A DNA stretch of 64,000 nt from Octopus vulgaris (Eukaryota): contig OX597836.1 in the NCBI GenBank assembly GCA_951406725.2, positions 11,656,001 through 11,720,000 on the forward strand, written 5' to 3'. Shown one piece after another: positions 5,165 through 59,070 of this stretch. The number at the start of each line of letters is the position of its first letter. Within the stretch, counting starts at the first letter, position 1. A model generated the notes under the pieces. It ran no database searches, was not told where the DNA came from, and was given only the letters and a program-made list of their open reading frames with translations. The position numbers were made by a program, and so were the translations under genes.

Positions 5165-5772
5165 TTCTTATTTCTTTATTGCCCACAAGCGGCTAAACAT
5201 AGAGGGGACAAACAAGGACAGACAAAGGGATTAAGTTGATGAGATCGACCCCAGTGCGTAACTGGTACTTAATTTATCGACCCCAAAAGAATGAAAAACA
5301 AAGTCAACCTCGGCGGAATTTGAACTCAGAACGTAACGGCAGACGAAATACGGCTACGAATTTCACCCGGCGTGCTAACGATTCTGCCAGCTCGCCGCCT
5401 TAAATAATTTCTTTACTTCCCACAAGGGGCTAAACACAGAGAAGACAAACAAGGACAGATAAACGGATTAAGTCGATTATATCGACCCCAGTGCGTAACT
5501 GGTACTTATTTAATCGACCCCGAAAGGATGAAAAGCAAAGTCGACTTCGGAGGAATTTGAACTCAGAACGTAGTGGCTGACGAAATACTTATTTCTTTAC
5601 TACCCACAAGGGGCTAAACACAGAGAGGACAAACAAGGACAGACAAACAGATTAAGTTGATTTTATCGACCCCAGTGCGTAACTGGCACTTATTTAGTCG
5701 ACCCCGAAAGGATGAAAAGCAAAGTCGACCTCAGCGGAATTTGAACTCAGAACGTAGCGGCAAACGAAATAC
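5165..5772 (-). mobile_element. Head-to-tail array of three family C SINE units
   Basis: atttctttac/ttgcccacaag...tttgaactcagaacgta repeated three times. Confidence 0.9.
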
Positions 5773-6614
5773 TTTACTCCCTTGGTCATTCTCTCTCACT
5801 CTCCCTGTCACTCACTCTCTCTCTCTCTCTCATCATCTCGCTCACTTTCTCTCTCTCTTTGTCGCTCTCTCTCCCAGTTTCTGTCACTCTCTCTCTCTCT
5901 CTGTCACTCTCCCTTTGTCTTTCTTTCTCTCCCCCTCACTCACTCACCCTCTCTCTCACTTCCCCAGCTGTCTCATCCTCGATGTATCGCTAAATCAAGA
6001 TTAACAGACGTCCGGGTGGTTGTTTACGTCTATCCGCTCCTGTATAATCACCAAAGCAATCAGCGAAAACCCGATACATATCGCAAAGCCATATCATCAA
6101 TCGCTCGCGAGTGACGGCCAGCCTACACACTATCTTATCTTATCTTATCAGAATATTTAAAAACAAACACACATTTGTCTTACATTTTTATATGAATTTA
6201 TTCAGAGTGTTTCAAAATGTTTCTTTAACGTAAAAAGGAAAAACAATTCTTGTTTATCAGGCTGAATAGAACGTAGATTTTTTTAATAATGATAAAATTT
6301 AGTATCACCAGTTTCAGGATGGTTCTTTTCCTCTTCAACACTACACCATTGTCTGCTAGGAACACACAAGCATTTTTTTTTTGTTTTACCTTTTTTCACT
6401 TACTTTTCTTTTCTGTTCTTTTTATTTATTTGTCCAGAAGTGTCAGACATCTGTCTGTTGACGGCGCTAAAATATTTGAAATATTCTTCAAAGTAAACAA
6501 GAACGGAAGAACTGGAGTTCATTCTTCGCCAAAAAGTGGTTAGCTTCTCTCTTTTTTTTTTATTTCAGTTAAAAGGAAAAAGAAAAGACATCGTAACAAG
6601 ATTAACTGAAATCA

Positions 6615-21698: not shown

Positions 21699-22024
21699 TC
21701 ATCATCATCATCATCAGTATTCTGTTTCCGTATAAATTGTCTTGATGAAAAAAAAAGAAATGTAACGTAAAGAACAGGGATGGGAGATATCAAATTTACT
21801 CCAAATGTCAACAGTTTCATTCTTTTTTTTAATTTTCATTATCGTTATTAATGAAGATTGTGGAGACGCGTGGTTTAGTTCTTTTTTTTAGAGCAGCGTT
21901 TCTTAACCCAGGCTTCTCCGAATCTCTGGGGTCTTGCAAAAGCTTCCTAAGGGTTCCGTGAGAAAGAGTGAGATAAGCTAATGCTAATTTCATGTTCGTA
22001 AAAAAATAAAAAATAAAAAAAAAT

Positions 22025-22088
22025 AAAGGCGGTGCTCCAGCATGGCCGCAGTCAAATGACTGAAACAAGTAAAAGAGTAAAAGAGTAT
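22025..22088 (+). mobile_element. Isolated family A 3' tail
   Basis: aaaggcggtgctccagcatggccgcagtcaaatgactgaaacaagtaaaagagtaaaagagta. Confidence 0.85.
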
Positions 22089-25696: not shown

Positions 25697-26550
25697 TATT
25701 GGGTCGTCCCATAAATAGTGCGGTATTTTTATACTTCTATTTTTCAAAATTAAGATAAACAAAGTCCCTTTTAATCTAAAATATACCTACCTTCATTTTC
25801 TACAATGCTTCTTCCATCTGCCTTGTAGACTCGCAAGGCCCCTCTTTCAAAATTCACTTGTCCCTGACGAAAAATACTCTTCCAGTACTGTTCTGACCTC
25901 GTCTACAGAATTCATATTTTTTCCATTAAAATGATTTTGAAGACTGCGGAATAAATGATAATCAGATGGGGCAATGTCCGGGGAATATGGTGGGCGGGCA
26001 TCGTTTCCTATTCAAACTGCTTCAGTCTTTGGAATGTTATCCTCGTTGTATGTGGCCGAGCATTCTCCCAATGGAAGAACACCTTTCATCTTGAAACCGA
26101 AGATGGTCGTTTTCCATCTAGCACTGACTTAAACCGCTCAAGTTGCTCGTCGTAGATCTCTTTTGCTATCATTTTCTTTGGATTTAAAAGTTCAAAGAGG
26201 ACTAAACCTTTCATATCCCACCAAACGGATAACAACACCTTACGTGGGTGAAGACCTTCTTTAGCCTGGGCTGCCAGTGTTTCGCTTTTTCCTACCCACT
26301 GCATTCGGCGCTTGACATTTTTATAGAGAATCTATGTCTCATCGCCAGTCACTGTTCGGTCCCAAAAAGGTTCATTCGTGAGGCGCACATGTTCACTCTG
26401 CACGCGATTAGACTCAGAAAGTTTGTGAGAAACCCATTGACCCAATTTGCTGACTTTCCCGATGGCAAGCAGGTGTCAATGAATGGTTTAATGACCAAAT
26501 CTAAGCTTCTCTGCTTGTTCCTCAATAGTTACAATGGAATTTTTTCCACC
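25697..26550 (-). pseudogene. Decayed mariner (DD34D) transposase with one terminal inverted repeat
   Basis: Minus-strand motifs in order: KLGQWVSHK (WVPHEL-like), VTGDET*ILYKN, LHPRKVLLSVWWD, FHWENARPH (HDNARPH-like), PPYSPDIAPSDYHLF; TIR-like tattgggtcgtcccataaatagtgcgg at 25697. Confidence 0.92.
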
Positions 26551-38568: not shown

Positions 38569-39248
38569 GGAGGCGCAATGGCCCAGTGGTTAGGGCAGCG
38601 GACTCGCGGTCATGGGATCGTGGTTTCGATTCCCAGACCGGGCGTTATGAGTGTTTATTGAGCGAAAACACCTAAAAGTTCCACGAGGCTCCGGCAGGGG
38701 ATTGTGGTGATCCCTGCTGTACTCTTTCACCACAACTTTCTCTTACTTCCTGTTTCTGTTGTACCTGTATTTCAAGGGGCCGGCCTTGTCACATTCTGTG
38801 TGTCACGCTGAATATCCCCGAGAACTACGTTAAGGGTGCACGTGTCTGTGGAGTGCTCAGCCACTTACACGTTAATTTCACGAGCAGGCTGTTCCGTTGA
38901 TTCGGATCAACCGGAACCCTCATCGTCGTAACCGACGGAGTGCTTCCATTATTGAGCGAAAACACCTAAAAGCTCCACGAGGCTTCGGCAGGGAATGGTG
39001 GTGATCCCTGCTGTACTCTTTCACCACAACTTTCTCTCACTCTTACTTCCTGTTTTTGTTGTACCTGTATTTCAAAGGGGCCGGCCTTGTCACTCTCTGT
39101 GTCACGCTGAATATCCCCGAGAACTACGTTAAGGGTGCACGTGTCTGTGGAGTGCTCAGCCACTTACACGTTAATTTCACGAGAGGGCTGTTCCGTTGAT
39201 TCGGATCAACCGGAACCCTCATCGTCGTAACCGACGGAGTGCTTCCAT
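38569..39248 (+). mobile_element. SINE family B full copy plus head-less tandem second copy
   Basis: Second unit restarts at ttattgagcgaaaacacc (about 38949); atacacgcagc flanks the whole dimer. Confidence 0.92.
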
Positions 39249-46387: not shown

Positions 46388-46554
46388 CTCTCTTTCTACT
46401 CTTTTACTTGTTTCAGTCATTCATTTGACTGCGGCCATGCTGGAGCACCGCCTTTAGTACTTATTCTATCGGTCTCTTTTTGCCGAACCGCTAAGTGACG
46501 GGGACGTAAACACACCAGCATCGGTTGTCAAGCAATGCTAGGGGGACAAGCACA

Positions 46555-46613
<59 letters not shown>

Positions 46614-46779
46614 ATATATACGACAGGCTTCTTTCAGTTTCTGTCTACCAAATCCACTCACAAGGCATTGGTCGGCCCGGGGCTATAGCAGAAGACACTT
46701 GCCCAAGATGCCACGCAGTGGGACTGAATCCGCAACCATGTGGTTGGTTAGCAAGCTACTTACCACACAGCCACTCCTA
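46388..46779 (-). mobile_element. SINE family A with a short internal deletion
   Basis: Colinear with the family. Confidence 0.9.
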
Positions 46780-47014
46780 TGGAAATACCCACAAATTTTG
46801 GCAATGTCTTTATATCTTACCAAGGTTAGGTTTTGTCTATCTCTCCTTGAGAAGACGATACAAGCAAAAACAATAATACCTTGGGAGACGATTCGATAAT
46901 TTACTTTTCTTTCTTCTGAGGTCTTATGTCTGTCAGAAATCCATATTGGTGTCCAGGACAAAACGTCTTGTAGTATTTAAAAGCATGTAAATTATCAGCA
47001 ATAAACAGAAGAAT

Positions 47015-47229
47015 ACTCTTTTACTCTTTTACTCTTTTACTTGTTTCAGTCATTCGACTGCGGCCATGCTGGAGCACCGCCTTTAGTCGAGCAACTCGAT
47101 CCCGGGACTTATTCTTTGTAAGCCCAGTACTTATTCTATCGGTCTCTTTTGCCGAACCGCTAAGTAACGGGGACATAAACACACCAGCATCGGTTGTCAA
47201 GCAATGCTAGGGGGACAAGCACAGACACA

Positions 47230-47305
<76 letters not shown>

Positions 47306-47472
47306 TACGACGAGCTTCTTTCAGTTTCCGTCTACCAAATCCACTCACAAGGCTTTGGTCAGCCCGAGGCTATAGTGGAAGACACTTGCCCAAGGTGCCA
47401 TACAGTGGGACTGAACCCGGAACCATGTGGTTGGTAAGCAAGCTACTTACCACACAGCCACTCCTGCGCCTA
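47015..47472 (-). mobile_element. SINE family A, full length
   Basis: Colinear with the family; tandem tactcttt tail. Confidence 0.93.
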
Positions 47473-48809: not shown

Positions 48810-49215
48810 TTCTTCGATTCTTTTGCTTGAATCATTCATTAGGTAGCGGTCATGCTGGGGCAACACCTTTTCTAATGCTTTTCTCTTTTATCATTCACGT
48901 GTTTCAGTCACTAGACTGCGGCCATGCTGGGGCACCGCCTTTTTTAATGCTTTCTCTTTTATCATTCACGTGTTTCAGTCACTAGACTGCGGCCATGCTG
49001 GGGCACCACCTTTTTTAATGCTTTCTCTTTTATCGCTCGCGTGTTTCAATCACTAGACTGCGGCCATGCTGGAGCACCACCTTTTTTAATGCTTTCTCTT
49101 TTATCGTTCACGTGTTTCAGTCACTAAACTGCGGCCATGCTGGGGCACCACCTTTTTAAATGCTTTCTCTTTTATCGTTCACGTGTTTCAGTCACTAGAC
49201 TGCGGCCATGCTGAA
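48810..49215 (-). repeat. 71-bp tandem repeat (about 6 units) built from the family A SINE tail
   Basis: aatgcttt starts at 48874, 48946, 49017, 49088, 49159; each unit holds gtttcagtcactagactgcggccatgctggggcacc; last unit runs on into a SINE body (to about 49520). Confidence 0.92.
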
Positions 49216-50867
49216 GCACCGACTTCAAAACTCTTTAGTTGAGTGGATCGACTCCTGCTACTTATCCTATCGGGTCGCTTTTGCTGAATCGCTAAGTTAC
49301 GGGGACGTAAACACGCCGACACTGGTTGTCCAAGGAGTGGTGAGGTACAAATACACAGACACATATGCAACGAGCTTCTTTCGGTTTCCGTCTACGATAT
49401 TCACTCACAAGGCTTTGGTCTGCTCGAAGCTATTGTAGAAGACATTTTCCCAAGGTGCCACGCAGCGGGACAGAACCCGGAACCATGAAGTTGGGAAACA
49501 ACCACACAGACACACCCACTGGAATGAAAGCTTTAGTCAAACAAATCGACCGCAGTACTCTTAGCTTTTTTTTTTTTTTAAATCTGGTTCCTATTTTATT
49601 GGTTTCTTTAACCAACACCCCGGGGTACAGGCACATACACAAACCAACACCGGTTGTCAAGTGGTTGGGTACACACAAACGCGCACACATACTATCACAC
49701 ACACAAACACTCACACAGACGCTCATACAAACACATGCCAACACTAAACAACAATAAATACGAAAACAAGCGAGTTAAATACGCAAACAAGGAGAGAGAG
49801 AGAAAATTGAAAAACAGGATAAATAACACAAAGAACGACCCTTCATCAGTTGTTGACTCTCTATCTACTCCTCATTTCGATGGGCTTAATTCAGTTTCCA
49901 TCTACCAAATCCATTCACAGCCCGAGGCTATAGAAAAAAAAAACACTTGCCCAAGGTACCATACAGTGGGATTGAACTTGGAACCATGTGGCTGGGGAAC
50001 AAGCTTCTTACCACACTGCCACACATGTTTGAAAACATAAAATTTTGGTGCATAATATAGTTAGTCAAAAAAGTTTGTGACTCAGTACAATTTATTGTTG
50101 CGACTAGATTTTATCTTGTCATAATTTCTGGTAACAGGTGTTAAATGAGTAGCAAAAAGCATAATAATTATATTATGGCCTCCAATAACATATTCAGATA
50201 GAAAAAGTAACAGTATTTTTTAACAGATCGAACTCATAAAGCAAGTAGTGCAAAGAGGAAGCGTGCTGTGTAAAGGGAAATAAAAAAACACTGCGGACTT
50301 CTGGGGCAGCAATTTTTAATTAAATGAGATGTTTAAACACGACTTGAAACGAAATAGGTCTATATAATTAAATGCCGTGGGAAAACGTTTGAATGAAAGC
50401 ACAAATGGGTTTGTTTTTGTTGGGGTTTTTTGGTAAAATTTTCACAAAGCTAGCTAGGAAATTAATTTAAAGATGGGCCCGAACCGAAGTCATAAAAATC
50501 GGCAACATGTAGGAACATGAAAATACAAGTCGACTCTTCACATCCATGTGCAAGCATATATATGTATGCACGTAGGAATGCATGTATAAATGTATACATA
50601 CATATATATATAAATTTAAATGTGTATGTGTGTGTGTGTGTGTGTGTGTAGTCCGATAACAGACAAAGTCAATGACTTTTGAAAATGTTGCAAGACGCAA
50701 CGAAAATTTTAGTAAAAAATAAATAAGTGAAAGCGTGTGTGTTAAAGTAATAAAGAACTAAAAGAGAATGGTTCTCCCCAGACACAATAAAATATGCTTC
50801 AACACACGAATTCAGATAATGAATCTTGCAAGCCACAAAAAAAATTAAATATTTAAATATTTAAATA

Positions 50868-57564: not shown

Positions 57565-57705
57565 AAGTGCAGGGCGGGGCGGGGTGGAGAGAGAAAGAAA
57601 GAGAGAAGGATGGAAAGGAGGAAGGTTAAGTAGTGACAGAGAGATGACTCGTTGGCTGGTCTGGCTGGCGGGAAACGGGGCTGTTGAGCGCCCGCCATGC
57701 GGATG
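57565..57705. promoter_or_regulatory. Possible GC-box/E2F promoter-like segment
   Basis: gggcggggcgggg at about 57572-57584 and tggcgggaaa at about 57666-57675 in an otherwise AT-rich window; motif evidence only. Confidence 0.3.
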
Positions 57706-57794
57706 TTGTGTTCGTGAATGTGGTGGTTTTGGTGGTGGCGTTTCTCTTGTTTTCCTTGACGATCATTCGACATCATCAGGAAAAACTGTATTTG

Positions 57795-58170
57795 CATTGG
57801 TTTCAATTTCCGGCACAAGGCCAGCAATTACGAGCGGGGACCGGGTAAGTCGATTACATCGATCCCCCAGTGCGCAACTGGTATTTATTTTATCGACCCC
57901 GAAAGGACAAGGACGAAGTCTTCCTCGGAGCAATTTCAACTCAGAACGTACGGACGGATGAAATACCCCTAAACATTCTGTCCAGCTTGCAAACGATTCG
58001 GATCCTTTCCCTTTGAACGGCAGATCGAGAAATTAATTCATCGGGGTCGATAAATTAAGAACCAGTCAAGTAATGGGGTCGATGTAATCGACTATCCCCT
58101 TCTCCACAAATTCCAGGCCTTGTACCTATGATAGAAAGGATTAAGGCAGTGGGCTGACAGAATCGTTGGA
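57795..58170. mobile_element. Family C SINE pieces in both orientations
   Basis: 57795-57998 minus, 58040-58170 plus; conserved core visible. Confidence 0.75.
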
Positions 58171-58214
58171 CCTTTTCCCTTTGAACGGCAGATAGAGAAA
58201 TTAATTTTTTGTAA

Positions 58215-58256
58215 CGCAAGGATGACACGCAAATTCGTGAAGCGTTCCATATTTTT
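58215..58256 (+). pseudogene. U6: U6 snRNA 3'-terminal fragment (retrocopy)
   Basis: cgcaaggatgacacgcaaattcgtgaagcgttccatattttt matches the conserved metazoan U6 3' end as I recall it; the 5' part including the ACAGAGA box is absent. Confidence 0.93.
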
Positions 58257-58325
58257 AGGCGGTGCTCCAGCATGGCCGCAGTCAAATGATTGAAACAAGT
58301 AAAAGAGTAAAAGAGTAAAGAGTAA
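58257..58325 (+). mobile_element. Family A 3' tail fused to the U6 fragment
   Basis: aggcggtgctccagcatggccgcagtcaaatgattgaaacaagtaaaagagtaaaagagtaaagagta. Confidence 0.9.
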
Positions 58326-58620
58326 ACACTTTCAAACTTCGGACACTGATAGAATGTATCATATAAAACATCTTTTACTATTAGCGTTTTTGAGATAAGT
58401 TTCTATTTACGAAGTTATTTCGTGTTAAAGTTGTCGTATTTCGGCAATTTCAACCAATCAATGACGTGTATTCAACTGAATAAAATTACTGCCGTTGTTT
58501 GTCAGCAACAAATATCGGCGGTATATTTTAAAATGAACTTGGTATTGTGGTATCAATGAGCAGAATAGCGGTTGACGATTCACCGACATCCAATAAGATT
58601 CCGTTATATAAGACGTCGCC

Positions 58621-59070
58621 TTACTCTTTTATTCTTCTATTTGTTTCAGTCATTTGACTGTGCACCGCCTTTAGTCGAACAAATCGAACCCAGGACTTAT
58701 TCTTTGTAAGCCTAGTACTTATTTTATCGGCCTCTTTTGCCGAACCGCAAGTTACGGACAGGCAAACATACCAGCATCGGTTGGCAAGCGATGGAGGGAG
58801 GACAAACACAGACACACAAACATATACATATACATATATATAACATACATATAAGAGTGATGACCACTAAGTGGACATCCAATATGCTAGATGTAGACCT
58901 AATATGGTCTACATCTAGCATATTAGATGTCCACTTAGTGGTCATCCTTCTTATATGTATGTAATATAATTTTTCTGAATCTTCAGATTTCTTCAAGATG
59001 TTTGGCCACTGGTTTAAATTGATATTAATCAAATTAAATACATACATACATACATACATACATACATACA

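Follow-up and report, generated by a model that had tools for sequence, protein, structure and literature searches.

Fusions between the 3' end of the U6 snRNA and the 3' segment of a retroelement are known from several vertebrates, and the papers describing them provide the frame into which the locus reported here has to be placed. In the platypus, with its stringent LINEs, 40 U6 chimeras with either L2 or the SINE Mon-1 have been recorded; nearly all of them possess a 5'-truncated U6 moiety and a TGAA-repeat tail, 72.5% are flanked by TSDs of 1-9 bp, and the U6 copies described for this genome are either genes or joined to repeats (Doucet 2015, PMC4476161). The same study lists three U6-RTEX and six U6-AnolisSINE2 copies, together with U6-L2, for Anolis, and two TSD-less cases, U6-RTE_Mdo and U6-RTESINE1, for the opossum, from which its authors drew no conclusion because a convincing TSD was lacking (PMC4476161). 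Biochemical work on the human U6/L1 chimeras revealed that RtcB joins U6 carrying a 2',3'-cyclic phosphate to RNA with a 5'-OH end (Moldovan 2019, PMC6789731). In humans, mature U6 terminates in five U's. Moldovan 2019 regards an intact oligo-U followed by a clean join as the mark of a bona fide ligation product, while U6 that is truncated at its 3' end and shows microhomology or untemplated bases is set aside there as template-switch-like (PMC6789731).

Within a 64-kb window of the Octopus vulgaris genome (64,000 nucleotides of contig OX597836.1, the whole stretch of DNA that was analysed), the segment 58215-58325 is a real fusion of the U6 3' end with the tail of a SINE, which we refer to as family A (Table 1). 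The original prediction that the first 42 nt represent the U6 3' terminus with its five T's was borne out by a cmscan search of positions 57700-58900, in which RF00026 was the sole match at E<=1 (32.8 bits, E 4.4e-6) and all 42 nt aligned without a gap to positions 64-105 of the 105 model positions, through the five U's at the end of the model. As the piece is a fragment, its score stays below the RF00026 gathering score of 44, and a whole-window Rfam scan at the gathering score consequently returned 0 matches. BLASTN, which had been proposed along with the prediction, yielded no further copy of the 42-nt piece within these 64 kb. The piece lacks the 5' 63 positions of the model and an upstream promoter. 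A run of T's ends Pol III transcription, and since the chimera has no promoter and contains a terminator-like T-run of this kind internally, the U6-tail copy is likely dead and inert.

Table 1. Positions within the window of the chimera, its flanks and the other repeat copies discussed in the text.
Feature	Position	Strand	Basis or remark
U6 snRNA 3' 42 nt, 5'-truncated, five terminal T's	58215..58256	+	Rfam RF00026 positions 64-105
SINE family A 3'-terminal body, from the A-linker before the predicted terminal stem-loops	58257..58298	+	BLAST, fold of sister copy
Short tandem-repeat tail, GAGTAAAA-type	58299..58325	+	Last 4 bases = right copy of possible TSD
T6 run bordering the insert on its left	58205..58210	+	Resembles the T-run that precedes family A insertions
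Left copy of possible 4-bp TSD GTAA	58211..58214	+	Identical to the last bases of the tail repeat
39-bp stretch of the host sequence on the left, predating the insert	58168..58206	+	Direct repeat of 58000-58038 (92%)
Full-length family A reference copy	47014..47471	-	tRNA-like head, CCTTGGG, TA/TG microsatellite, 3' half with hairpins, repeat tail
Tail-only family A copy	22024..22087	+	Break at -3, counted from the junction of the chimera, behind an A-rich run
Family A copy with 41-nt internal deletion (46453)	46390-46777	-	Deletion removes predicted upstream hairpins and ends at -5, at the linker
Tandem array, 5.3 units of 71 bp, older family A 3' domain	48846-49220		Unit start at -2, in the linker
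mariner-type transposase fragment	26089-26331	-	PF01359, E 1e-23

The five T's of U6 abut the family A 3' end at 58256/58257 with a spacer of 0 nt; no extra bases are present at the join, and there is no microhomology, as the family A bases preceding this point mismatch the U6 end. The predicted transition from the U6 end to a family A tail without a spacer is hence confirmed, and the join is clean. The assignment of the distal part to the family A end also stands, but its length requires correction: 68 nt plus a repeat tail had been proposed, whereas 58257-58325 corresponds to the last 69 nt of family A with the GAGTAAAA-type repeats included (about 44 nt of body and about 25 nt of repeats). 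The first 44 nt of this tail deviate at 1 position from the majority sequence of 10 other copies. The U6 part and the 5'-truncated family A piece with its natural 3' end share the same orientation and directly adjoin each other. Hence, the snRNA 3' end is reached and a truncated SINE follows it, two of the features by which the group IV snRNA/non-LTR chimeras of Doucet are recognized, and the intact oligo-U (five T's, within a range of about 4-8), joined without microhomology or untemplated bases, presents the sequence pattern that Moldovan ascribes to RtcB-type products. No hammerhead core was seen by eye at the junction when compared with the consensus, and Rfam detected no ribozyme.

Like the platypus and Anolis chimeras, the octopus copy combines a truncated U6 possessing an intact 3' end with a short retroelement 3' piece and a simple-repeat tail other than poly(A); TSDs of 1-9 bp or none, and SINEs among the partners, are further common traits. 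It differs from them in its invertebrate host, in the SINE and the tail unit involved, and in being a single example. With U6-RTE_Mdo and U6-RTESINE1 of the opossum it shares a 5'-truncated U6 on a non-L1 element, and with the human U6/L1 copies the clean joining, in sense orientation, of the U6 oligo-U to a 5'-truncated retroelement (PMC6789731; PMC11838501). Most human copies differ in joining a full-length U6 to L1 and in ending with poly(A) (Law and Burns 2025, PMC11838501), and no preferred junction site in L1 is described for them (PMC6789731; PMC11838501). SINEU likewise combine a 5' part derived from an snRNA with a 3' part of retroelement type; these, however, are multi-copy families that arose from master copies and carry U1 or U2 heads (Kojima 2015, PMC4494074), whereas the octopus element is a promoter-less U6 fragment present once in 64 kb.

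A LINE-mobilized U6 chimera with a tail other than poly(A), in a probable mollusc, had been put forward as not known to be described. This part of the original prediction largely fails, as the platypus, Anolis and opossum cases precede it (PMC4476161); chimeras with a SINE as partner, or with a tail other than poly(A), were therefore already known. The invertebrate setting alone appears to be unreported: our search of the open literature, with subscription papers and Repbase outside its scope, revealed no such chimera of U6 in molluscs or any other invertebrates. The octopus locus thus likely extends to a cephalopod the U6-retroelement chimeras known from vertebrates. The repeat annotation of the O. 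vulgaris genome assigns 369,490 bp to a SINE family 'U' and 52,753 bp to 'U-L1', with neither a description nor a sequence (PMC13282606), and snRNA-headed repeats may consequently already have been catalogued in it.

The segment 58257-58325 has 29 other BLAST matches in the window, corresponding to 23 other loci once a single 14-nt match is set aside and six matches from one tandem array are merged. Complete family A copies are about 400-460 nt long. Their head contains motifs that we take to be A- and B-box-like, assigned by eye against the consensus; ARAGORN found no tRNA. Following the tRNA-like head, a CCTTGGG core motif is visible by eye, and beyond it lie a TA/TG microsatellite, the 3' half and the GAGTAAAA-type tail. 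CCTTGGG is common to the CORE and Ceph domains (Kojima 2018, PMC5786205), and an octopus CORE SINE, OR2, is on record (PMC4758252). To judge from these motifs, family A would be a SINE of the tRNA/CORE type. Upon translation of a family A copy, 2 of 7 candidate proteins were matched, the best being a predicted protein of Octopus vulgaris, 88% identical across 32% of the query; this match supports the original guess of a mollusc and points to an octopus. A Pfam scan of 88 of the 220 candidate frames revealed no partner LINE; its only yield was a piece of a mariner transposase.

The sequence GTAA brackets the U6 part and the tail at 58211-58214 and 58322-58325. Of the short flanking TSD that had been suggested, the repetition on both sides is hence present, but its significance was rejected by a control with mismatched flank/tail pairs, 31 of 132 of which match over at least 4 nt (mean 3.1 nt). 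Because GTAA belongs to the tail unit, its repetition constitutes weak evidence for a TSD, and the left flank of the chimera matches 6 of 12 other family A tails equally well. No direct word of at least 7 nt is shared by the left and right flanks, and the inverted words measure only 7-8 nt. For the 12 family A copies with both head and tail, the left flank matches the tail over 1, 2, 2, 3, 3, 3, 3, 3, 4, 5, 9 and 23 nt, the longest of these being a TA microsatellite, so that the match does not exceed 5 nt in 10 of the 12. As these values resemble the mean of the mismatched controls, the TSDs of family A insertions are either very short or absent, and the 4 nt of the chimera are therefore typical for the family.

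The target sites of family A nevertheless follow a pattern. The left flank ends in TA or TAA in 8 of 12 copies (where the final A could be part of the head), and TTT occurs at positions -14 to -5 in 8 of 12, compared with 17% of random 10-mers (p 0.0002; p 0.009 if a background of 30% is assumed). The flank to the left of the U6 piece shows this T-run and TAA end as well, as is to be expected if a family-A-type insertion begins with U6. RTE elements possess TSDs of 7-15 bp, preceded at a distance of about 10 nt by a T stretch (Nishiyama and Ohshima, PMC6007223). The T-run of family A recalls this signature; however, its flank matches of mostly 2-5 nt fall below the RTE range, which also separates the octopus copy from the RTE partners of the opossum pair, and by analogy the short TSDs would better fit the platypus L2 pattern. 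A host-repeat copy of the insertion site was not found in the window, and the flank motifs had 0 matches in viral contigs; their 21 matches in metagenome contigs, none of which aligned beyond about 20 nt, were all treated as chance. A search of sequencing runs gave 24, of which one contains 0.67 of 69 words and may be the source of the window itself; the remaining runs, with at most 0.28, count as no evidence, and no RNA run was among the 24.

How the two parts came together is best approached from the junction. Since the complete U6 end and the clean join represent the bona fide pattern of Moldovan, we lean, by a little, towards ligation over a template switch. Our tentative first choice is that U6 was ligated in the manner of RtcB to a fragment of SINE (or partner-LINE) RNA, and that the ligation product then underwent target-primed reverse transcription. 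Family A RNA would have been cut in the predicted unpaired A-linker just before the terminal stem-loops, leaving a 5'-OH, to which the five-U end of mature U6 might have been ligated, as in the human biochemistry. A LINE protein would subsequently bind the tail, nick a site of the T-run/TAA kind seen in the left flank and prime on the tail repeat, and reverse transcription would have halted after 42 nt of U6, the point at which the copy is truncated. In the predicted fold of a sister copy, the junction falls into the linker, with a pairing probability <=0.01 at -2 to 0; the 3' 117 nt of this copy fold at z -3.1, and the proposed helices are 90% paired across 18 family A copies. In these 18 copies, covariation does not rise above that of shuffled alignments (67 of 500 were as high), and the family A hairpins are therefore predictions. 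The unpaired junction base, the young tail, the family A-like flank and the precedent of the platypus anatomy speak for this account of one insertion by way of ligation; the non-significant TSD, the lack of helix covariation and the absence of a partner LINE from the 88 of 220 frames speak against it.

A template switch is quite possible as well, though we rate it second. After copying the tail, the LINE reverse transcriptase would have come to a halt at the base of the hairpin that lies just 5' of the linker, and from there it would have switched to the 3' end of U6. This is the model put forward by Doucet 2015 for chimeras with L2, RTE and SINE partners (PMC4476161), and a site-specific precedent exists in Magnaporthe (PMC2104539). 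It also draws on the breakpoints of family A itself: when 27 other tail matches were aligned to the reference copy and 14 break events were counted by hand, 4 of the 14 fell inside the 7-nt linker (p 0.0015). Among these is the 41-nt intramolecular deletion at 46453, which, ending at the same linker, fits polymerase jumping better than ligation; the tail-only copy at 22024, the start of the array unit and an indel of 8-10 nt found in older family A copies make up the rest of the cluster. If the array unit and this subfamily indel are left out, the cluster shrinks to 2 of 12 (p 0.07), and A-rich targets bias alignments at the linker, so the counts are a hint of a breakpoint hot spot. The tail-only copy at 22024-22087 is probably a plain 5' truncation with microhomology, but it may also be a chimera with a poly(A) RNA. 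Against a template switch stand the join, with neither microhomology nor added bases, and the biochemical demonstration of ligation for human U6/L1 (PMC6789731).

Both ligation and a template switch presuppose a single retrotransposition event, and we consider it very probable that the U6 part and the family A tail were inserted together, given the complete U6 end, the young tail (1 mismatch in 44 nt) and the family A-like left flank. The original prediction of a chimeric retrocopy generated by the LINE that mobilizes family A accordingly survives as the best reading of the sequence anatomy, though its novelty does not. It is improbable that a lone U6 3' fragment was followed later by a truncated family A copy that inserted at its T-run with a TSD of 2-3 bp. 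Family A favors T-run/TA sites, tail-only copies do exist (22024-22087), the 4-bp GTAA is not significant, and the U6 T-run with the first base of the tail makes up a plausible family A target, so two insertions are compatible with the sequence alone. Two rare events would be needed, however, and we roughly estimate from site and copy density a chance of 5e-4 for a tail-only copy to hit this given T-run/TA site; moreover, the break lies exactly at the mature U6 end, and the platypus, where U6 copies are only genes or repeat-joined, would by analogy argue against a lone fragment, U6 retrocopies usually taking the form of chimeras under stringent LINEs. It is most unlikely that the assembly is at fault, that the U6 sequence is foreign or that a piece of SINE family B happens to look like U6: the first 23 nt of the U6 piece do resemble family B (19/23, in 8 places, E 0.06), a likeness that we treat as coincidence, but all 42 nt fit the U6 model through its end, the flanks at the join are neither family B nor microsatellite sequence, and anatomy this clean would hardly be expected from mis-assembly.

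Taken as one insertion, the chimera suggests that about 70 nt of the SINE 3' end likely suffice for mobilization. No model needs changing on account of one inert copy. Were a series of such chimeras with a common junction seen genome-wide, it would bear on the question of ligation versus switching for stringent LINEs. It is conceivable, but on present evidence doubtful, that the octopus carries many independent chimeras of U6 or other small RNAs that share one hot spot, the unpaired linker in front of a minimal 70-nt mobilization domain of the SINE, and that the 'U' and 'U-L1' SINE labels possibly stand for such elements. Should this be true, it would provide the first invertebrate series separating ligation from template switching, and it would show how SINEs gain new heads.

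Some features of the repeat landscape deserve to be recorded in their own right. Families A and B have in common a GGGGTCGAT-type hairpin motif, seen by eye in their 3' halves, which hints at an exchange of modules between them. Just left of the insert, the repeat pair 58000-58038 / 58168-58206 encloses an inverted family B-like piece. Elsewhere in the window, repeat-derived units have undergone tandem duplication, with units of 299 bp at 38655-39248 and of 184 bp at 5407-5774.
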